A stretch of 64,000 nt of DNA from Candidatus Saccharimonadota bacterium (GTDB lineage Bacteria; Patescibacteriota; Saccharimonadia; Saccharimonadales; HK-STAS-PATE-42), in NCBI GenBank assembly GCA_036826375.1, contig DAISWL010000002.1:37157-101156 (forward strand), given 5' to 3'. The stretch's first letter is position 1. The number at the start of each line of letters is the position of its first letter. The position numbers were made by a program, and so were the translations under genes. The notes beneath the pieces were generated by a model. That model saw only the letters and a list, made by a program, of their open reading frames with translations, was not told the origin of the DNA and did not search any database. Positions 3,574-31,013 of the stretch are shown piece by piece.

Positions 3574-5646
3574 TTAGCCTTTTTTGCTAGCAACGGCCTC
3601 AGCAACGTGAGCAGGAGTTTCTTCGTAGTGGCTAAGTTCCATGGTTGAACTAGCTCGGCCCTGGCTCATGCTTCTAAGATCGGTAGTGTAGCCAAACATT
3701 TCTGCTAGTGGTACGTAGCCGATAATTACTTTTACGCCAGGTCTATCTTCCATTTCGTCAATTCTACCACGACGAGAGTTTAAATCACCGATGACGTCGC
3801 CCATGAAATCTTCAGGAGTAACCACTTCTACTTTCATGATAGGTTCTAGTAGGATCGGCTGAGCTTTTTTAGCTCCATCTCTGAATGCCATGCTTCCAGC
3901 AATTTTAAAGGCCATTTCATTTGAATCCACATCATGGTAACTTCCATCGTAAAGTTCTGCTTTGACGTCTACAACTGGGAATCCGGCTACAACACCGTTG
4001 TTCATAGCTTCTTCGACACCATGTTTCACAGCTGGGATGTATTCACTTGGTACGACACCACCTTTAATTGAGTTTACAAACTCGAAACCGGATCCAGCTT
4101 CAAGAGCTGAAAGTCGTAGCCAAACATCTCCATATTGACCACGTCCACCTGATTGCTTAATGTATTTACCTTGGATCTCAGTACTACCCTTGATAGTTTC
4201 GCGGTAAGCAACTTGGGGTTGGCCAACGTTAGCCTCAACGCTAAATTCGCGTTTCATTCTATCTACGATGATGTCTAGATGTAGCTCTCCCATTCCGGAG
4301 ATGATTGTTTGACCGGTTTCATGATCTACTCTTACCCTGAATGTAGGATCTTCTTCTGCTAGGCGCTGCAAAGCAATAGACATTTTCTCTTGATCTTGCT
4401 TAGTTTTAGGTTCAATAGCGATTGAAACTGGAGGGTCTGGGAAATCTATACTTTCCAAGATGATCGGATTAGCCTGATCACAAAGAGTATTACCAGTTGT
4501 AGTATTCTTTAAACCAACCATTGCAGCAATGTCTCCAGCACTAACCTCTTGTACTTCTTCGCGTGAGTTTGCGTGCATCCTTAAGATGCGACCAACTCTT
4601 TCTTTATCTCCAGTAGAACTGTTGTAGATGTAGCTACCAGCCGTAACCTTACCGCTATAAACGCGGAAAAATGCCAGCTTACCAACAAAAGGATCGGTTG
4701 CTATTTTAAAGGCGAGTGCGGAAAATGGCTCGCTTTCACTAGGCTTTCTTTCGACTTCATCATCAGTTTTTGGATGAGTACCCCAGTTAGAGCCTCTATC
4801 GATTGGCGAAGGTAAGTAGGCAACCATTAAATCTAATAATTTTTCTACAATCACGCCACGGCCATCTCCACCGGAAACTAAGAAGAAATCACCTTTTAGA
4901 ACTTGCGCTCTGAGGCCTGCTATTAACTCTTCATTACTAATGGCTTCTTCGCCTTTTTCTAAGAACTTCTCAAGCAACTCATCGCTACTCTCAACTGCGG
5001 CCTCAACTAATAGAGAGCGGTATCGAGTAGCCTTCTCTTGCATATCTTCCGGGATATTTCCCTCTATCAACTCTTTGTCGGTGAAATCTTTATAGCTATA
5101 TGCTTTCATTGTTATAAGATCAATAACACCGTTGATGCTTTGTTCGAATCCGATTGGCAAGTGAACCGGGAAAGCTCTCTTGGTTAAACGCTTATGAATG
5201 CTTTCTAGAGATTTGTAGAAATCACCACCGGTTTGGTTAATTTTATTAATAAAGCAAATACGTGGAACTTTATATTTATCAGCTTGACGCCAAACGGTTT
5301 CACTCTGAGATTCCACGCCCATTTTTCCATCGAAAACAGTAACGGCACCATCAAGCACACGAAGTGAGCGCTCAACCTCAACGGTAAAATCAATATGTCC
5401 AGGAGTATCAATAATGTTAATTTGATGACCACCCCAAAAACAAGTAGTGGCGGCTGAGGTAATCGTGATGCCACGCTCTCTTTCTTGAGCCATCCAATCC
5501 ATAGTGGCTTCGCCATCATGAACGGCTCCAATTTTATGTTTAACACCGGTGCGGTATAAAATACCTTCTGTTGTGGTAGTTTTACCAGCGTCAATATGAG
5601 CAATGATTCCAACATTGCGTAGTTTAGTTAAATCTGCGTTCGCCAC
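3574..5646 (-). CDS. fusA: translation elongation factor G
   Basis: 690 aa; N-terminal G domain [20 protein letters not shown]; EF-G-like throughout. Confidence 0.95.
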
Positions 5647-5799: not shown

Positions 5800-6279
5800 T
5801 TAGCTTCTAGCGAAATGAGCGAAAGCTCGGTTGGCTTCTGCCATTTTATGAACGTCTTCCTTCTTTTTCACAGCTGCTCCCGAATTATTATAAGCGTCTA
5901 CAATTTCGGTGCTTAATCTTCTAGAAAAAGGCATACCTTTTTTACTTCTAACCGCAGCGATAAACCACATTAAGCCTAAGTGAGTTCTTCTGTGGCCCTG
6001 TACGGGAAAAGGAACTTGGTAATTAGCTCCTCCTACGCGACGGCCCTTAACTTCAAACTCTGGCCATACGTTCTTTAAAGCGCCTTCAAGTGCCTCTAAT
6101 GGATTTTCAAGCTCTAGCTTTTTAGCGGCTTCTTCCATCGCTTGGTAGATTCTTTTTTCGGCAGCAGTTTTCTTGCCATCGAGCATAGATTTATTTATTA
6201 ATCTTTGCACTAAAACGGAGTTGTAAACTCTATCGGGATTAGGAATTCTTTGTAGGGATTTAGTTTTTTTCCTCGGCAT
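5800..6279 (-). CDS. rpsG: 30S ribosomal protein S7
   Basis: 159 aa, begins [16 protein letters not shown], typical S7; stop TAA at 5800-5802. Confidence 0.95.
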   Translation of the reverse strand: MPRKKTKSLQRIPNPDRVYNSVLVQRLINKSMLDGKKTAAEKRIYQAMEEAAKKLELENPLEALEGALKNVWPEFEVKGRRVGGANYQVPFPVQGHRRTHLGLMWFIAAVRSKKGMPFSRRLSTEIVDAYNNSGAAVKKKEDVHKMAEANRAFAHFARS

Positions 6280-6864: not shown

Positions 6865-9432
6865 TTAGACAATTACTTCAAGTTCTTCCTGACTGGGGCT
6901 CTTTTTCTCATTCTCTACACCGGTTCCTACTGGTATCTTTCTACCTATAATCACGTTTTCTTTTAGACCGTAGAGTTTATCTACCCTGCCACTTGTCGCA
7001 GCCCCAATGAGTACTCTATTGGTATCCTGGAAGCTGGCAGCAGAAAGGAAGCTATCACTAGCAGTAGAAACTTTAGCGATACCTAGAAGCAATTGAGTAT
7101 ATTGAATTGGTTTTTTACCTTCAGATATAAGCCTTATATTTTCCTCGATAACTGTAGCTTTAGATACGATGTCACCCGTAACTAGCAGGCTGTCGCCGCT
7201 TTCATCTATTTGAACTCTACTGAACATTTGGCGAACTATTATTTCTACGTGCTTATCGGCAATATCTACACCTTGAGCCGCATACATAGCTAACATCTCG
7301 TTAATAATATAGCGTTGCGTAGCCTCGACCCCCTTAAATTTCATTAAATCATGCAAATTCAGAGAACCAGAGGTTAATCTATCTCCGGAGGCTATTTTAT
7401 CACCTTCGTTAACTACTAGTTGCTTAAACTTAGGGACCTTATATTTCAAAGATGTACTATGCATAGATGTCAAAATCAGCTTTTTAGATTCTGTATTTAT
7501 ACTCAACTTAGCGGCGAATGGAGCTACAATCGGGTTTGTTCCATCTTTCTTGGCCGCAATAGTATCTCCAGATATAACGTCACTTCCTTCGGTGATGTAA
7601 ATAATCCTATCTTCTATATTAAATTCTTCAACTCTTGCCCCATCAGGAGTTACGGTTACGGTAAACTCGCCTTCACCCTCTAATACAGAGACTATGCCGC
7701 CAACTTCAGTAACAATAGCTTGGCCCTTAGGGTTTCTAGCTTCAAGAAGCTCCTCGATACGTGGCAAACCTTGAGTCACATCATCTTCGATAGCCGAGCC
7801 CGCCTTATGCTTAGTATTTAATGTAAGTTGGGTACCGTATTCACCTATGGATTGAGCAGCTATAACCCCTACTGGCTGATTTGGCTTAACAAGCTGACCT
7901 GTGGCTAGATCCACACCATAAGATTTAGTGGAAACTCCCCTTAGATTAGAGCAAGTTAGAACGCTCATGATTCTGGCTTCACTAAGATCACTAGATTCAA
8001 TAGCCGCTGCCGCCTCTTTAGAGATTAGGCTATTCTTACTAACTAGAACTTCATTATTAACTATAATATCTTGAGCGGAATATCTACCTTGCAAGCGCTC
8101 ACCAAAACCACGATTTATAGATTCTGACTCTTCTCTAGTTATAATGTAGCCATGATCTTCCGTGTCTCTATCCACAGTGAAAATATCTTGAGCCACGTCA
8201 ACCATTTTCCTAGTCAAGTAGCCCGCATCAGCTGTCTTAAGCGCGGTATCAATAAGACCCTTACGAGATGCTCTAGTATCTATGTAATACTCAATTGGGG
8301 ATAATCCCTTTTTATAATTACTTCTTATTGGTAGTTCGATTTCCCTACCCAGAGCATCCACCACGACTCCCTTCATACCACTAACATTTTTAAACTGACC
8401 GACGCTACCTCTTGCTCCGGAGACCACAGCGATAGCCATGCTGGAATCTGTTTGGTTAAATTGTTCTTTAAATCTGTCTAGAACTTCCGTGTCTACATCT
8501 CTCCAGGCATTTATGGTTAGCCGTCTGCGCTCGCTATCAGTGATTAGACCATCTTCATAATCAGAGGTTATGGTCTCTACTTGAGATTCACCCTGCGCCA
8601 GCATCTCTGAAAGGCCATTAACGTCAGCGAAATCATCTATCCCAGCAGAAAGACCAGCTATGGTTGCATATTTGAAGCCAAGATCCTTAAGCTTATCAGC
8701 AACTTCAGCGGTTGTGTCGACTCCATACTTATCGAATATTTTAGACATAACTTTGCTAAGCAATTTGTTGGTCATAGGTTCGTTTTGATAGAGAAAATCT
8801 TCAGGTAGAACTTCATTAAAAAGTAATCTTCCGTATGTGGTAACAACTCTATTACCCTTAATATTAAGATCTATGTTTGACTGAAGTTTAATCAGACCAT
8901 TCTCGTAGGCATACTCTACCTCGTTAGCGCTACTAAATCTAATAGATTTATCATTTTCGGTGCCGTGTTTTTGATAAGTTAAGTAGTAGCACCCTAAAAC
9001 TATATCTTGAGTAATGTGTAAAATTGGGGATCCATCAGCAGGTTTTAACAAGTTCTTATTGGCAGCCATAATTGTTCTTGCCTCATGTTGAGATTCTTCG
9101 GAAAGAGGTAAATGAACGGCCATCTGGTCGCCATCGAAATCCGCATTAAAGCCTTGGCACACCAAAGGATGTAGCATTATAGCCTTGCCGCTAACTAATA
9201 CTGGCTTGAAAGCCTGGACAGATAGGCGGTGGAGAGTTGGAGCACGATTTAAAAGCACGTATTTTTCCTGAATAGAATCTTCCAAGGCGTCCCATATAAC
9301 GTCTTCACCGGATTCAATCATTCTAGATGCAGTTCTGATGTTATGTGCATAGTCACGTTGGATCAACCACCCCATGACGTAAGGTTTAAATAGCTCCATA
9401 GCCATAGTTTTTGGTATGCCACACTGATCCAT
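6865..9432 (-). CDS. rpoC: DNA-directed RNA polymerase beta-prime subunit, C-terminal segment (from the residue equivalent to E. coli ~L352 to the end)
   Basis: 855 aa, begins MDQCGIPKTMAMELFKPYV and contains the catalytic NADFDGDQMAVH. Colinear with E. coli beta-prime [18 protein letters not shown] onward. Confidence 0.9.
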   Translation of the reverse strand: MDQCGIPKTMAMELFKPYVMGWLIQRDYAHNIRTASRMIESGEDVIWDALEDSIQEKYVLLNRAPTLHRLSVQAFKPVLVSGKAIMLHPLVCQGFNADFDGDQMAVHLPLSEESQHEARTIMAANKNLLKPADGSPILHITQDIVLGCYYLTYQKHGTENDKSIRFSSANEVEYAYENGLIKLQSNIDLNIKGNRVVTTYGRLLFNEVLPEDFLYQNEPMTNKLLSKVMSKIFDKYGVDTTAEVADKLKDLGFKYATIAGLSAGIDDFADVNGLSEMLAQGESQVETITSDYEDGLITDSERRRLTINAWRDVDTEVLDRFKEQFNQTDSSMAIAVVSGARGSVGQFKNVSGMKGVVVDALGREIELPIRSNYKKGLSPIEYYIDTRASRKGLIDTALKTADAGYLTRKMVDVAQDIFTVDRDTEDHGYIITREESESINRGFGERLQGRYSAQDIIVNNEVLVSKNSLISKEAAAAIESSDLSEARIMSVLTCSNLRGVSTKSYGVDLATGQLVKPNQPVGVIAAQSIGEYGTQLTLNTKHKAGSAIEDDVTQGLPRIEELLEARNPKGQAIVTEVGGIVSVLEGEGEFTVTVTPDGARVEEFNIEDRIIYITEGSDVISGDTIAAKKDGTNPIVAPFAAKLSINTESKKLILTSMHSTSLKYKVPKFKQLVVNEGDKIASGDRLTSGSLNLHDLMKFKGVEATQRYIINEMLAMYAAQGVDIADKHVEIIVRQMFSRVQIDESGDSLLVTGDIVSKATVIEENIRLISEGKKPIQYTQLLLGIAKVSTASDSFLSAASFQDTNRVLIGAATSGRVDKLYGLKENVIIGRKIPVGTGVENEKKSPSQEELEVIV

Positions 9433-9438
9433 ACTTAG

Positions 9439-10701
9439 TTAGGGCCCGGATACAATTACGGATCGTCCCGAGTAATCTACACGCTTACCTAGAAGATTCT
9501 GGCGGAAACGACCCTGCTTGCCCTTTAAACTATCACTCAATGATTTAAGTTTACGTCTACCACCGGTTGAAGTTACTGGGCGACCATTTCTAGCTGCAGA
9601 ATTATCAATCAAAGCATCTACTGCCTCTTGGAGCATTCTGCGCTCATTCCTTTGGATTACCTCTGGAGCATTCAGATTAATAAGCTTCTTCAAACGGTTA
9701 TTGCGATTAATGACTCTCCTGTAGAGATCGTTAATATCACTAGTGGCGAACCTGCCGCCAGTTAGTTGAACCATTGGCCTTAGATCGGGAGGAATTACGG
9801 GTAGAGCTGTTGTACACATTGAAGATGGTTCTATCCCTGCCTGATACATACCTTCTAGTACCTTCAAACGCTTCATTATTTTTTTACGCCTTGCACCTTT
9901 GGCATCTTCAACTTCTTTATTTAGCTCAGCTGTAATATCCCTTAAATCGGTTTGGTCTAGTATAGTTTTCAAAGCCTCGCCGCCCATGCCAACGGTAATA
10001 ATATCAGCATAAGCATCAGTTAGATCACGATAGTCGGTCTCAGAGATCAAAGCGTACTTATTTAGGGATTCTAGCTTAGCCTTATTCATTAAGTAATCTT
10101 CCGTGAGCCCGTCTAACTCTTTACTACGCTCAGAAGCAAGCGCCTTAACGTCTACACCCTCTTCAGCCATTAGCTCTTCATACTTGTGATTAAGTTTAGC
10201 TTTATCCGCCTCAATAGTATTTTCTAATTCATCTAGCAAACTCTGCTTAGCCTCCTCGTCTACGTTCAATATTACATAGGAAGCAAAGTAAACAATTTTT
10301 TCTAGAGATTTTACAGTCATACCGGTAATCAAGCTTATGGCGCTAGGAAGCCCCTTTAAAAACCATATATGCGCAACTGGGGCCGCTAATAGAATATGAC
10401 CCATTCTTTCACGTCTAACTATAGAGCGAGTTACGAGTTCTCCGTTCTTATCTACTGCCATTTCTCTAGAGCGTATGCCCTTGAATTTAGCATCATTAGG
10501 ATTTATGTCTTTGACTGGTCCGAAGATTCTTTCACAAAATAGGCCGTCTTTCTCTGGTTTTTGCGTTCTATAGTTGATCGTCTCTGCTTTGGTGACTTCG
10601 CCGTGAGACCAGTTAAGTACATCCTCCATGGATGCTACCAAAAGCCTAATAGCTTCAAAATCTAAGTTTTTTTCATGGGCATTTCTAATATTAAAACTCA
10701 T
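9439..10701 (-). CDS. rpoC: DNA-directed RNA polymerase beta-prime subunit, N-terminal segment (ends ...GRSVIVSGP then TAA)
   Basis: 420 aa; ends [20 protein letters not shown], matching E. coli ...[14 protein letters not shown](Y). Same reading frame as the downstream segment, separated only by TAA-CTA-AGT before ATG. Confidence 0.9.
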
Positions 10702-10703
10702 AA

Positions 10704-13700
10704 TTATACCTCCTCTCCTTCGTTGCTCAAGCTTAAATCATCAGAACCTTGTTCGCTCTCTTCGTAAGATAATGGCTCTTCATCGTCAACATCATCACTG
10801 GATACAGTAGCTCCAGATAGCTGAGCGTTATCGCTAGGAACAGCTACCAGCATTTCTTCGGGCATATGCTCTGCTTCATCCTCTATATTATCCTCTAAGG
10901 ATCCCTCTGCGTCGGCTTCGCCACCACTACTGATTAAGTCTACCCTCAATCCTAAACCTTGCAATTCTTTTACTAGTACGTTGAAAGATTCTGGCACTTT
11001 GGGGCCTACTATCTTCTCACCTTTAATTATAGATTCGTAGGCCTTACTTCTACCGTAAACATCATCAGATTTAATGGTTAGCATTTCTTGTAGAGTGCTC
11101 GCGGCGCCATATGCCTCAAGAGCCCACACTTCCATTTCTCCAAACCTCTGCCCTCCATTTTGAGCCTTACCGCCAAGAGGCTGCTGAGTTACCATTGCAT
11201 ATGGACCTATTGAACGAGAATGGATTTTATCGTTAACCATATGATGAAGCTTCATCATATGCATAACACCCACTGCTATACGCTCTTTAAACTTGTCCCC
11301 GGTGCGACCATCATATAATTCGGCCTTCCCATCCCTATCAAAACCGGCTTTTTCCAATTCATCTTTAACGGATTCTATCGATACCCCATCGAAAGCGGGA
11401 GTAGCCACTTTATATCCCAATGCTCTAGCAGCCATACCTAAATGAAGCTCAAATAGCTGACCAATATTCATACGGCTAGGGACTCCAAGTGGGTTCAAAA
11501 CCATATCAACAGGAGTACCATCCTCCATGAAGGGCATATCCTCTTCTGGTAATATTTTGGCTACCACGCCTTTATTACCATAACGACCAGCCATTTTGTC
11601 ACCAGGCTGAATCTTACGCATCTGAGCAACAAAAACCTGAACCTGCATCAGTACTCCAGATTTAAGATCGGCCCCATTCTCACGTGTGAATACTTTTACT
11701 CCAACTACTTTGCCGCGCTTACCGTTGGGCATTCTTTCGCTGGTATCTCTAACATCTTTCGCCTTTTCACCGAATATAGCCCTCAGTAACTTCTCTTCAG
11801 AACTAAGTTCTTGTTCACCCTTGGGGGTAATTTTACCGACTAGGATATCTCCAGGCTCAACTTCGGCGCCGACTCTAACTATGCCACTTTCATCTAGGTT
11901 GGCCAGAACTTCTTCGCTAACATTTGGGATATCCCTAGTTACAACCTCGGGGCCCAATTTAGTTTCACGTATTTCAGTAATAAAGTCTGATATATAAACT
12001 GAGGTTAATTCGTCGTCTTTCACTAAACGTTGGGATATGATGATTGAATCTTCAAAATTATACCCGCCCCAAGGCATGAAGGCCACCAGCATATCTTTTC
12101 CTAAAGCTAACTCGCCATCCTTGATACTCATGCCTTCTGCCAAAATATCGCCTTTTTTGACCTTATCGCCTGATTTAACTACTACTTTTTGGTTGATAGA
12201 ACTGTTCGAGTTGGTTCTCACAAAATGCTCTAAAATATATATCTTAGTACCATCTTTATACTTAACATGAACCTCGTTAGCGTCGGCCTTCTTAATTTCA
12301 CCATCGGCATCCGCCGTGATAACTTGGCCCGTGTTATTAGCTATAAGCTCTTCCATGCCGGTGCCAATTATGGCCGGTTCAGGCTTAATTAAAGGAACAG
12401 CTTGCTTCTGCATGTTTGCGCCCATTAAACAGCGGTTGACTAGGTTCTTCTCTATGAAAGGGATTAGGGCTGCAGTAGATCCTACGATCTGTGATTGAGC
12501 GGCATCCATATAGTCAATTTCGTCAGCGTCTACTTCTGCCGGATGAGCAAACTTTCTAGCAGTCACTCTCTCACCGGTGAATGCGCCACTATCGTTAAGT
12601 TTATTACCAGCGCTGGCGATAATAAACTCTTTTTCTTGATCCGCATTAAGATAAACTACTTCATCGGTAACTTTACCTTTTTTGACTTTAAAATAAGGGG
12701 TTTCAATAAAGCCGTATTCATTAATCTTGGCATACGTTGCTAAGTTTAATACTAAACCAATATTCGGACCTTCTGGAGTTTCTGTCATACATATTCTACC
12801 GTAGTGAGTAGGATGCACATCGCGAACCTCGAAGCCGGCTCTTTCGCGAGTTAGGCCTCCTGGTCCCATAGAGTTCAAACGACGCTTATGGGCAAGCTCA
12901 CTCAAAGGGTTAGTCTGCTCCATAAACTGAGAAAGCTGAGATGTAGTAAAGAATTCACGCACACTAGCCACTATTGGCCTAGCGTTAACTAGTTGAGCGG
13001 CTGTTACGGTTTGGATGTCCGAAAGGCTCATTCTATCTTTGATATTTCGCTCAATTCTAAGCATACCGATTCTGAACTGACGCTGAACCAACTCTCCAAC
13101 TAATTTAACCCTTCTTGATGAGAGTGAATCTATGTCGTCACCGGGTTCCTGCGTATTATTAAGTCTAATTACTTCCTTGATAATTTCAACGAGATCTTCA
13201 ACTTTTAAGATTCTGTTTTCAACTGTATTAGTAATATCTAAGTTTAAGCGGCTGTTGATCTTATATCTACCAACACGAGAGAGATCGAACCTTTTAAAAT
13301 TAAAGAAGGTAGATTCTATTAAGCTTCTAGCATTATCGACTGTTGCCAAATCGCCAGGTCTTAATTTTCTATAAACTTCTATTAAAGCCTCACTAACCCC
13401 TCCGGCTGGGTCTTTTTCAAGTGTTGTATCTATGAATTTTATGCCTCCGTCGTCAATTTCTTTAAAAGCTTTTTTAATATCGCTTTTATTCATGCCGAAT
13501 GATTGCAAAAGAGTTGTTACTGGCAGTTTACGACGTCTATCTATCTTAACACTTAAAACCCCGTTCTCTGCAGTTTCTATTTCTATCCAAGCACCTCTGG
13601 CTGGTGCTAGTTTAGCGGAATAAACGAACTTAGATCCAGCAAGTTCACGACCAAAAGTTACGCCAGGGCTCCTAATCAATTGACTAACCACTACTCGCTC

Positions 13701-14078
13701 GGCTCCGTTGATTACAAAAGTTCCTCTTTCGGTCATCCATGGGTAATTGCCCATGAACAATTCTTGCTCTTTAACTTCTCCAGTTACCTTATTGATTAGC
13801 TCGACATTCGCGTAAAGAGGGGCGTCGAAAGTAGTGTTATTTTCCCTAGCCTCTTTTTCGCTAATTTTTGGTTCGCCAAAATAATAAGATTTAAAAGATA
13901 TATCAAGCTTTGCACCGGTATAATCTGAAATAGGGTTAACTTCGGCGAATATCTCAGAAAGACCTTCTCCGACAAATTCACGCCAACTCCGCAGCTGGTG
14001 CTCGATTAAATCTGGAACCTCTATATCATTAACCGATGTGAAGTATTTTCTTTGTGTAGAAATTTTAGCTTTAGCCAT
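10704..14078 (-). CDS. rpoB: DNA-directed RNA polymerase beta subunit
   Basis: 1124 aa with typical RpoB blocks (GNKGVV, NMQRQAVP-like regions) and an acidic C-terminal tail. Confidence 0.95.
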
Positions 14079-23774: not shown

Positions 23775-23864
23775 GCGGTGGTGGCGGAATTGGTAGACGC
23801 GCTAGCTTGAGGGGCTAGTGTCCGATTTTAGGACGTGGAGGTTCAAGTCCTCTTCACCGCACCA
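23775..23864 (+). tRNA. tRNA-Leu (anticodon GAG), class II with long variable arm, CCA encoded
   Basis: Near-identical architecture to E. coli tRNA-Leu. 7-bp acceptor GCGGTGG/TCACCGC, anticodon arm CTAGC-TTGAGGG-GCTAG, T-arm GGAGGTTCAAGTCCTCT. Confidence 0.9.
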
Positions 23865-29230: not shown

Positions 29231-29376
29231 GCGCAGCCCGAAATCTACAATTAAAAGCATCGAGCATCTTCATTTTCACTTGATAAAAACCGAGGATGCT
29301 AAACTTAATATTCTGGTAGAATATTCAGATTAGAACCAACCTCTGGCCTCTAACCTGCTATAATTAAGCTTAATAG
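29229..29376 (+). pseudogene. 3' remnant of the HIT-family gene plus ~45 nt of its downstream region, duplicated immediately upstream of the intact copy
   Basis: ~93% identical to 29719-29866, including ...IEHLHFHLIKTEDAKLNILVEYSD and the downstream TATAAT-containing spacer. It abuts the transposase remnant. Confidence 0.55.
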
Positions 29377-29390
29377 GAGGCCAACTTAGA

Positions 29391-29822
29391 ATGATAACAA
29401 AAGCTCAAAATATTTATCGCTCAGATGATAACATTAGTAATTATCAGAATTATCGTAAAAAAGTTAAGCCATCTGAAAATTGTGTTTTTTGTTCTGATGA
29501 AAAGCCGAGTTTTAATCCTCGAAGCTTAAACTTAAGGCATCTTAGAATTATAGAAAATAGCTTTCCGTACGATTTTTGGGATATGAAAAAAGTTCAAAAG
29601 CATTTGATGATCATCCCACTCAACCACATAGATTGCGTATCCAAACTTAATTCTAACGAGCAAAAAGAGCTAAACTTAGTTATGGCCCATTTTTCTGATG
29701 CTGGCTATGATATTTTTGTTCGCAGCCCGCAATCTACAATTAAAAGTATCGAGCATCTTCATTTTCACTTGATAAAAACCGAGGATGCTAAACTTAATAT
29801 TCTGGTAGAATATTCAGATTAA
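29391..29822 (+). CDS. HIT (histidine triad) family hydrolase
   Basis: 143 aa; C-terminal HLHFHLI matches the H-phi-H-phi-H-phi-phi triad; N-terminal CVFC; AGGAGG 7 nt upstream of the ATG. Confidence 0.6.
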   Translation: MITKAQNIYRSDDNISNYQNYRKKVKPSENCVFCSDEKPSFNPRSLNLRHLRIIENSFPYDFWDMKKVQKHLMIIPLNHIDCVSKLNSNEQKELNLVMAHFSDAGYDIFVRSPQSTIKSIEHLHFHLIKTEDAKLNILVEYSD

Positions 29823-29855
29823 AACCAATCTCCAACCTGGTATAATTAAGTTTAG

Positions 29856-30636: not shown

Positions 30637-30712
30637 GGCTCTTTAGCTCAGTTGGTAGAGCAGAGGCCTGAAGAGCCTTGTGTCCCCAGTTCGAGTCTGG
30701 GAGGAGCCACCA
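30637..30712 (+). tRNA. tRNA-Phe (anticodon GAA), CCA encoded
   Basis: Acceptor GGCTCTT/AGGAGCC (one G-U pair), D-arm TAGCTCAGTTGGTAGAGC, anticodon loop CTGAAGA, T-arm CCCAGTTCGAGTCTGGG. Confidence 0.9.
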
Positions 30713-31013
30713 CAAAACGTTATTTTATACTTAAGCTTAGTGAATATCCGCTAAGCTTTTTTGTTTATAAAAGATTTCCCATTGGCGAGAACTGGATTAG
30801 CGAGCCGATAGAGCGAGCGCAGTCGGCGGAATGAATAAGCGCGCAGCAACCGGAACGAAGTGAAGATTGCGAGCACTTATGGATGGAGGAGGCGAAGCCG
30901 ATGTCTGGGAGGAGCCACCACGAAACGTTATTTTATACTTAAGCTTAGTGAATATCCGCTAAGCTTTTTTGTTTATAAAAGATTTTCCATTGGCGAGAAC
31001 TGGATTAGCGAGC
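30695..31013 (+). repeat. tandem direct duplication (~111-nt unit, ~98% identical, period 208 nt) of the tRNA-Phe 3' end (19 nt) plus the downstream terminator region, with a 97-nt GC-richer unique spacer
   Basis: Copy 1 at 30695-30805 and copy 2 at 30903-31013 differ at 2 positions. Spacer 30806-30902 is ~55% GC. Track ORFs 30631-30834 and 30860-31132 are artefacts of this repeat. Confidence 0.7.
30733..30764 (+). terminator. rho-independent terminator after tRNA-Phe (stem AAGCTTAG/CTAAGCTT, 10-nt loop, TTTTTT)
   Basis: Seen directly. The stem is built from the iterated AAGCTT palindrome. A second copy lies at ~30941-30972 inside the duplicated unit. Confidence 0.6.

Follow-up and report, generated by a model that had tools for sequence, protein, structure and literature searches.

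Organization of the rpoC locus

The window, by which we mean the whole 64,000-nucleotide stretch (64 kb) analyzed here, encodes RNA polymerase beta-prime in the gene order rpoB-rpoC-rpsL-rpsG-fusA, the expected context of an rpoC operon. The rpoC frame is uninterrupted in every sibling and relative, whereas in the window it is broken by a TAA at codon 421 and reads as two consecutive ORFs:

6865..10701, minus strand: rpoC (RNA polymerase beta-prime), 1278 codons plus terminator
9439..10701, minus strand: N-terminal fragment ORF, 420 aa, HMS31881.1; Rpb1_1 and the first 16 residues of Rpb1_2
6865..9432, minus strand: C-terminal fragment ORF, 855 aa, HMS31880.1; starts at Met424 and holds the catalytic NADFDGD, Rpb1_3, and Rpb1_5
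9439..9441, minus strand: in-frame TAA at codon 421 (GAA/Glu in all relatives), from the window sequence and the relatives' codon
9441, plus strand: discrepant base, A in the window and C in 13 of 13 near-identical sibling loci (11 sample accessions)

Joined, the 420-aa and 855-aa ORFs make up 1278 codons, the length of the intact relatives, and beta-prime motifs, including NADFDGDQMAVH, are found in the translation. The 855-aa ORF contains the catalytic NADFDGDQM motif (...GFNADFDGDQMAVHLPL...) and aligns with solved beta-prime chains (E ~1e-100); the 420-aa ORF was deposited under the name 'hypothetical protein'. With the stop mended, Pfam assigns Rpb1_1, Rpb1_2, Rpb1_3, and Rpb1_5. The intact sibling protein P0127 carries PF04997 (14-403), PF00623 (405-546), PF04983 (550-690), and PF04998 (799-1171), and the same Rpb1 domains 1, 2, 3, and 5 are shared out, in order, between the two window ORFs. 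HMS31880.1 and HMS31881.1 (locus tags PKA29_01220/01225) are on record from one contig only, that of the metagenome-assembled genome (MAG) itself (Candidatus Saccharibacteria). Apart from these two, the window has one pair of real ORFs that share a frame, rpoA and the gene after it, which are ordinary neighbors.

On the minus strand the region reads ...TCC GGG CCC TAA CTA AGT ATG GAT CAG TGT GGC..., that is, ...S G P stop L S M D Q C G.... An earlier note, made from the sequence alone, had described an in-frame TAA between the two ORFs, an ATG 6 nt past it, and an indel-free alignment to E. coli beta-prime. All three are borne out, with the TAA (9439-9441) opposite E. coli Tyr360 and the ATG at the position of E. 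coli Leu363. The same note took the stop to have replaced a conserved Tyr by a TAY to TAA transversion, but neither part of that claim survives comparison. The 107 Saccharibacteria-type homologues have E (69), K (29), S (3), T (2), D (2), Q (1), or H (1) at this position, solved beta-prime structures have E or Q, and Trp is found in 67 GTDB species. Because all eight close relatives have a Glu encoded by GAA, the codon has changed from GAA to TAA by a G to T substitution of the coding strand, which on the plus strand is C to A at 9441.

Codon 421 in relatives and same-strain assemblies

The relatives compared are the eight other members of the 90%-identity cluster that holds both window fragments. 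All eight are uninterrupted proteins of 1278 aa with Glu421 (92.8-99.9% protein identity). P0127, which is encoded on 19 contigs, equals the window beta-prime at all 1277 other residues, and residue 421 is the sole difference. A comparison of the codon itself at nine loci (eight same-strain contigs and L003, from a 99.2%-identical strain) gives GAA in each. Thus the check proposed in the earlier note, of the same codon in close relatives, returns GAA and an intact gene throughout.

Same-strain loci from 11 sample accessions (ERZ27290345/351/344/323/320; SRR9261025/0996/1017/1005/1031/1015) likewise have GAA, and all 3836 other rpoC bases are those of the window; these accessions amount to 6 to 11 independent read sets, since some ERZ assemblies may re-assemble the same SRR runs. 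The match between the window and same-strain contigs extends up to 13.4 kb, and the DNA flanking the stop is base-identical to that of intact siblings. Sibling contigs with 99.9% identity or more cover 46,389 positions of the window, and only at 9441 does the window depart from all of them. The TAA allele is therefore private to one assembly of at least 12; every other assembly of this strain and of the species has an intact gene. Apart from this base, the contig shows no flaw in the parts that are comparable.

Origin of the stop

The TAA is a private one-base substitution in the consensus of a single MAG, C to A at 9441 (GAA to TAA on the coding strand), and most likely a sequencing or assembly error. 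We consider it probable that the locus holds such an error and involves no split polymerase, recoding, or programmed event. That the base is unique to this assembly is observed directly; that it arose as an error, and not in a living cell, is what we infer. G to T (C to A) substitutions are a classic artefact class, produced by oxidative damage or by G/T channel cross-talk, and Illumina motif-specific error after GGGCCC/GGCCC was considered as a source. Consensus and local assembly errors, including sporadic nonsense and frameshift breaks, are documented in uncurated MAGs (Chen et al., 2020, Genome Res, PMC7111523). The window resembles these cases in that a single MAG has a defective copy of one essential gene that is intact in other assemblies of its population, on a contig that is otherwise identical; the same type of break is found at loci L038 and L048 and in 5 of 67 control loci. 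Unlike them, the window defect is one clean substitution, with no unsupported stretch or indel. Two observations run against an error: short-read consensus substitutions are rare per base, in a contig that is otherwise flawless where compared, and another lineage has a nonsense codon at this same position in two separate assemblies, L051 and L113. This recurrence may mean that some such nonsense alleles are read-supported.

An error or a dead-end variant is indicated because the stop is unique to one MAG and the gene is intact in 11 other sample accessions. As a dead-end variant, the stop would be real DNA: a spontaneous G to T nonsense mutation present in some sampled cells or molecules and taken up by the assembler, for example through low coverage or a wrong bubble choice, with neither a functional beta-prime nor a transmitted lineage. 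Such a variant would show, as an error would, a private base and no co-adaptation. Unrepaired 8-oxoG in vivo also leaves a G to T signature, which the substitution fits, and the L051/L113 lineage, with nonsense in both assemblies and CAA in the sibling L114, is a parallel. At L113 (JGI 3300010338, Ga0116245_10003844) the stop is a TAA at position 5992, and GCA_035381945.1 has CAA. A lethal allele is, however, expected to remain near the mutation frequency and almost never to become consensus, and the A allele is present in no other sample; we regard this origin as unlikely. Of the origins proposed in the earlier note, only an error and a recent nonsense mutation remain, and an error is much the more likely.

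It is highly unlikely that the nonsense mutation is recent and viable, with polypeptides 1-420 and 424-1278, of about 47 and 95 kDa, made by reinitiation at the AUG 6 nt on, and/or a little full-length product by UAA readthrough, and the pieces forming an active polymerase. The TAA-N6-ATG geometry is there, a Met three codons past the stop also occurs at L048, L051/L113, and L110, and large RNA polymerase subunits tolerate some natural or engineered splits, as in cyanobacteria and jumbo phages (PMC7598289). It is only because RNA polymerase can assemble from fragments that reinitiation retains any probability at all. Against viability, the break lies inside Rpb1_2 and the double-psi barrel, 16 residues in, which is no known split site; the allele is missing from all other assemblies of the strain; and UAA is the dominant terminator here. 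There is no Shine-Dalgarno sequence in the 20 nt upstream of ATG424 (tatccgggccctaactaagt), whereas GGAG/AGGAG-type sites precede many other genes in the window. Seven of the eight intact close relatives already have Met424, which, being ancestral in the clade, needs no explaining, although Met at +3 occurs in only 12 of 101 Saccharibacteria-type matches. The suggestion that TAA-N6-ATG is an evolved coupling consequently fails, and the sequence around the stop shows no apparent adaptation to a split polymerase.

Cyanobacteria and plastids divide beta-prime (rpoC1/rpoC2, gamma/beta-prime) downstream of the catalytic double-psi beta-barrel domain (PMC7598289). This split is shared with the beta-prime-like subunits of jumbo phages and is fixed across the lineage. 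The window resembles it in that two consecutive ORFs encode beta-prime, but its break falls within Rpb1_2, before NADFDGD, and is unconserved even within the strain; the alignment of the cyanobacterial gamma subunit (8syi_D, 624 aa) runs on across the break point. The archaeal A'/A'' split, in which a beta-prime homologue is likewise encoded by two genes, falls well downstream, within the C-terminal third; it is an ancient, fixed split with proper translation signals. Its position also differs from that of the cyanobacterial split (PMC7598289). The window break, by comparison with engineered splits, lies within conserved region C and the double-psi barrel, at residue 360. In the 1990s Severinov and colleagues reportedly engineered splits into E. 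coli beta and beta-prime, and RNA polymerase is said to assemble from the fragments; the sites of the functional splits are said to be spacers of low conservation, at the boundaries that occur naturally in archaea and chloroplasts.

A fixed fission of rpoC in the lineage, yielding a genuinely split beta-prime as the earlier note had offered among its options, is refuted: it would draw only on the window sequence, whereas the gene runs without interruption in the eight cluster relatives and in every same-strain locus (11 sample accessions). The break is not conserved among relatives, residue 421 lies inside PF00623 and not at a domain boundary or known split, and the downstream part lacks an initiation signal of its own; a fission therefore has a negligible chance of being correct. 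Equally far-fetched is TAA read as a sense codon, through stop-codon reassignment or a suppressor tRNA, for which the in-frame TAA in rpoC is the sole pointer. TAA is a real stop in this genome, as had been stated from the end of rpsL, where it overlaps the rpsG ATG as TAATG; it ends 37 of the 52 window ORFs, more than any other terminator, and rpoC alone has an internal stop within the 64 kb. This terminator use and the confinement of the interruption to rpoC effectively refute recoding; neither the many in-frame TAAs nor the disuse of TAA as terminator expected of reassignment is seen. The siblings have GAA at codon 421. The window encodes four tRNAs, all ordinary (Leu-GAG, Val-TAC, Phe-GAA, and Glu-TTC), and none of the four is a suppressor with anticodon UUA.

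Stops at the same codon in other genomes and implications

Sporadic stops occur at this codon elsewhere. Among GTDB species representatives (185,579 species) there are two true stops, one code-25 TGA, and 67 Trp codons, and JGI metagenomes yield two clean stops and one frameshift. L038 has a stop at the same codon that is a private nonsense relative to its intact sibling, from which it further differs by a second G to T change at a distance of 36 nt and by a ~31-nt deletion near the 3' end of rpoB. Met at +3 is found in 4 of 6 sporadic stops. Stop rates of ~1e-5 per genome would be expected from consensus errors in MAGs at ~1e-5 to 1e-6 per base and hence give no evidence of a hot spot. The protein search lists mainly truncated proteins of about query length, with none full-length among the best 120 matches, and this bias inflates the chance of finding fragments that end at the same residue. 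In an unselected control set of 67 GTDB species representatives, rpoC was frameshifted in five, and there was no clean nonsense in the ~73,000 codons of these 67 control loci. Public MAGs often carry a broken rpoC frame, and the sporadic stops at this codon look like background noise.

One reading would give the recurrence a biological basis. Where the beta-prime double-psi barrel begins (E. coli 360), the codon that follows the invariant Gly-Pro might be a permissive break point, with reinitiation three codons on giving a two-piece beta-prime and the window allele representing a living split polymerase. This would account for the clean stops that several unrelated MAGs share at this codon (the window, L038, L048, L051/L113, L110, and L112); we hold it to be very improbable. 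If true, the core transcription enzyme would have a new architecture, with beta-prime divided within the catalytic double-psi barrel.

We conclude instead that the substitution at 9441 is a consensus error of one base, private to this MAG, or at most a nonsense allele that has not been fixed. The stop almost certainly represents an error or a dead-end variant, and not a new type of split polymerase, and its practical worth is as a data-quality flag. Broken rpoC in public MAGs, GTDB species representatives included, should not be taken for biology unless there is read support. HMS31880.1 and HMS31881.1 are to be merged, with Glu421, as halves of one ordinary rpoC, and the actual gene of this organism would be an ordinary, uninterrupted frame of 1278 codons with Glu at residue 421.

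An in-frame stop in rpoC

The window's rpoC lies in the order rpoB-rpoC-rpsL-rpsG-fusA and, as the earlier note had reported, is interrupted by an in-frame TAA with an ATG 6 nt on; the minus strand reads GTA TCC GGG CCC TAA CTA AGT ATG GAT CAG TGT GGC (V S G P stop L S M D Q C G).

9439-9441, minus strand: in-frame TAA between the 420-aa and 855-aa ORFs of rpoC
9439..10701, minus strand: 420-aa ORF, N-terminal part of rpoC (HMS31881.1)
6865..9432, minus strand: 855-aa ORF, C-terminal part of rpoC (HMS31880.1)

Joined in translation, the two ORFs yield beta-prime in full, NADFDGDQM and the other customary motifs included. Both are public entries named 'hypothetical proteins', each recorded from one contig only, the 181,477-bp contig of a third-party-annotated Candidatus Saccharibacteria MAG.

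TAA is a true stop in the window, where it is the main terminator (37 of 52 ORFs) and where the end of rpsL overlaps the start of rpsG as TAATG. In a six-frame scan of the 64 kb, rpoC was the only gene interrupted by a stop (the one further pair of genuine ORFs sharing a frame consists of rpoA and the adjacent next gene), and the four window tRNAs are all ordinary. Recoding of TAA is effectively refuted.

The indel-free alignment to E. coli beta-prime described in the earlier note is correct, with the stop at Tyr360 and the ATG at Leu363, but Tyr is not conserved there: Saccharibacteria-type homologues (n = 107) mostly carry E or K (E 69, K 29, S 3, T 2, D 2, Q 1, H 1), solved structures have E or Q, and 67 GTDB species (within loci L040-L109) have Trp (TGG). 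The species with Trp include Solirubrobacterales/Conexibacter, Fructilactobacillus, Chitinophaga, Phycisphaerae, and some Patescibacteria.

Same-strain contigs and relatives

Close relatives are intact at this position. The 90%-identity cluster that holds both fragments has eight other members, all of 1278 aa (92.8-99.9% identical), with Glu421 in every one. P0127, the intact beta-prime of the sibling contigs, has its coding sequence on 19 contigs and differs from the window's beta-prime solely at residue 421. Loci from 11 sample accessions match the window's rpoC at all other 3836 bases and have GAA at the codon, as does a 99.2%-identical strain; these amount to between 6 and 11 independent read sets, plus the divergent strain, given that some ENA (ERZ) assemblies may share runs with Logan (SRR) contigs. 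Several sibling contigs (L001, L024, and others) show exactly one mismatch to the window across 9.8-13.4 kb. In a comparison with contigs of ≥99.9% identity (46,389 positions covered out of 64,000, mean depth 4), 9441 is the only covered position at which the window stands against all siblings (A in the window, C in 13/13 loci), each of the other four mismatches being confined to one sibling. Since the siblings all have C at 9441 and GAA at the codon, the change is, as judged from these alignments, GAA to TAA, a G-to-T substitution on the coding strand that is private to this assembly, rather than the TAY to TAA first proposed.

A fixed rpoC gene fission, one of the options raised in the earlier note, is ruled out, as relatives and same-strain contigs are all intact. 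The accompanying remark that the break is unlike the cyanobacterial split does hold: the 624-aa cyanobacterial gamma subunit aligns without a break across the stop site, and the cyanobacterial split is located after the double-psi barrel (PMC7598289), so that identity of the two is rejected.

Further observations concern a tRNA gene and two direct repeats in the window.

23775-23864: tRNA-Leu GAG; sibling contig L029 matches the window at 100% identity as far as the tRNA 3' end and is divergent beyond
29232-29343 and 29721-29832: 112-nt direct repeat (96% identity), flanking a 143-aa ORF
30695-30805 and 30903-31013: 111-nt direct repeat (98% identity, spacing 208 nt)

At the divergence point, L029 encodes a 520-aa large serine recombinase (12149-13711; Resolvase, Recombinase, and Zn_ribbon_recom domains), and this region is probably an integrative element at tRNA-Leu that is missing in the window. 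The 143-aa ORF (29391..29822) has no Pfam match; in sibling strains (L011, L014, L015), gene content switches exactly at the 112-nt repeat, with NUDIX and a 218-aa ORF instead. The first copy of the 111-nt repeat begins within the 3' end of tRNA-Phe (30637-30712), and the sibling L012 (GCA_049290995.1) appears to have one copy.

Stops at the same codon in other assemblies

Among the hits of the initial protein search was P0106, 418 aa long and terminating exactly at ...VVGP; the search lists mostly truncated proteins near the query length, and fragments ending at the same residue are therefore favoured. The contig that encodes P0106 (L038; ENA ERZ28655603, scaffold_6391), a Saccharibacteria sequence only ~64% identical to the window, reads TAG at this rpoC codon (5455-5457). 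It has another G to T lying 36 nt upstream (5419), by which the invariant RVDYSG becomes RVYYSG, and a ~31-nt deletion near the rpoB 3' end. No such break is present in the near-identical sibling L039 or in the cluster mates, all of which have Glu at the codon; L038 looks like poor-quality sequence.

A degenerate-pattern scan of 185,579 GTDB species representatives gave, besides the 67 Trp, one TGA (L092, an Absconditabacterales MAG, consistent with genetic code 25) and two true stops: TAG in L048, a Proteiniclasticum soil MAG with at least 12 intact 1182-aa cluster mates, and TAA in L051 (MAG JPMR_maxbin.121, unclassified bacterium, 35% GC). A scan of JGI metagenomes gave one frameshift (L111) and two contigs with a clean in-frame TAG (L110, L112). 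As in the window, the stop is followed three codons later by Met in L048 and L110. The TAA-N6-ATG of L051 recurs in a separate assembly (L113; JGI 3300010338, Ga0116245_10003844; 5992-5994), with 1 internal mismatch over 7.3 kb and 3 at a contig end; no full-length protein is present in their 90% clusters. A third assembly (L114; GCA_035381945.1, DAOSZF010000956.1) matches throughout 1094 nt apart from the codon itself, which is CAA (Gln). On this comparison the L051/L113 stop is a one-base polymorphism with an intact allele, the nonsense allele itself being putative.

The stop rate at the codon is about 1e-5 per genome, as would be expected if consensus errors arise at 1e-5 to 1e-6 per base. 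Among the 67 control loci, chosen solely by Trp at the site with gene integrity disregarded, five GTDB species representatives (L043, L074, L090, L099, L103; all isolates labelled MFD) have a frameshifted rpoC, apparently through indel errors, although the gene is essential. No hot spot at the codon is demonstrated, on a weak control, the scans being of this codon alone. Five Saccharibacteria beta-prime entries (P0009, P0020, P0051, P0056, P0088; contigs of 12.6 kb to 1.2 Mb) have out-of-frame tails and appear to be frameshifted rpoC of deposited genomes; such entries would account for the many 'short' beta-prime proteins in the database.

Origin of the stop

A sequencing or assembly consensus error in the window's MAG would put the TAA into rpoC, and we regard this, the first option of the earlier note, as the probable explanation; G-to-T changes are a well-known type of artefact. 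The main rival, a real but dead-end nonsense molecule picked up by the assembler, is rather unlikely. The other option, a recent nonsense mutation tolerated through reinitiation or readthrough, would give a viable two-piece beta-prime and is very improbable: the stop lies within Pfam Rpb1_2 (405-546), 16 residues from the start of that domain and before the catalytic aspartates, and is thus intradomain, not interdomain; a ribosome-binding site is lacking, with no Shine-Dalgarno motif in the 20 nt upstream of ATG424, the start of the 855-aa ORF (tatccgggccctaactaagt); and the allele is missing from every other assembly of the strain. GGAG/AGGAG precedes many other window genes, including rpoC's own start (gaaggagaggagg). 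Because seven of the eight intact relatives already have Met424 (the remaining one has Ile), the TAA-N6-ATG geometry is, on the aligned proteins, a coincidence of ancestry.

The deposited sequence does contain the A at 9441, but a 'split rpoC' is no real biological feature of the organism. HMS31880.1 and HMS31881.1 should be joined as one rpoC with Glu421, and caution is due before broken essential genes in MAGs are taken for biology.
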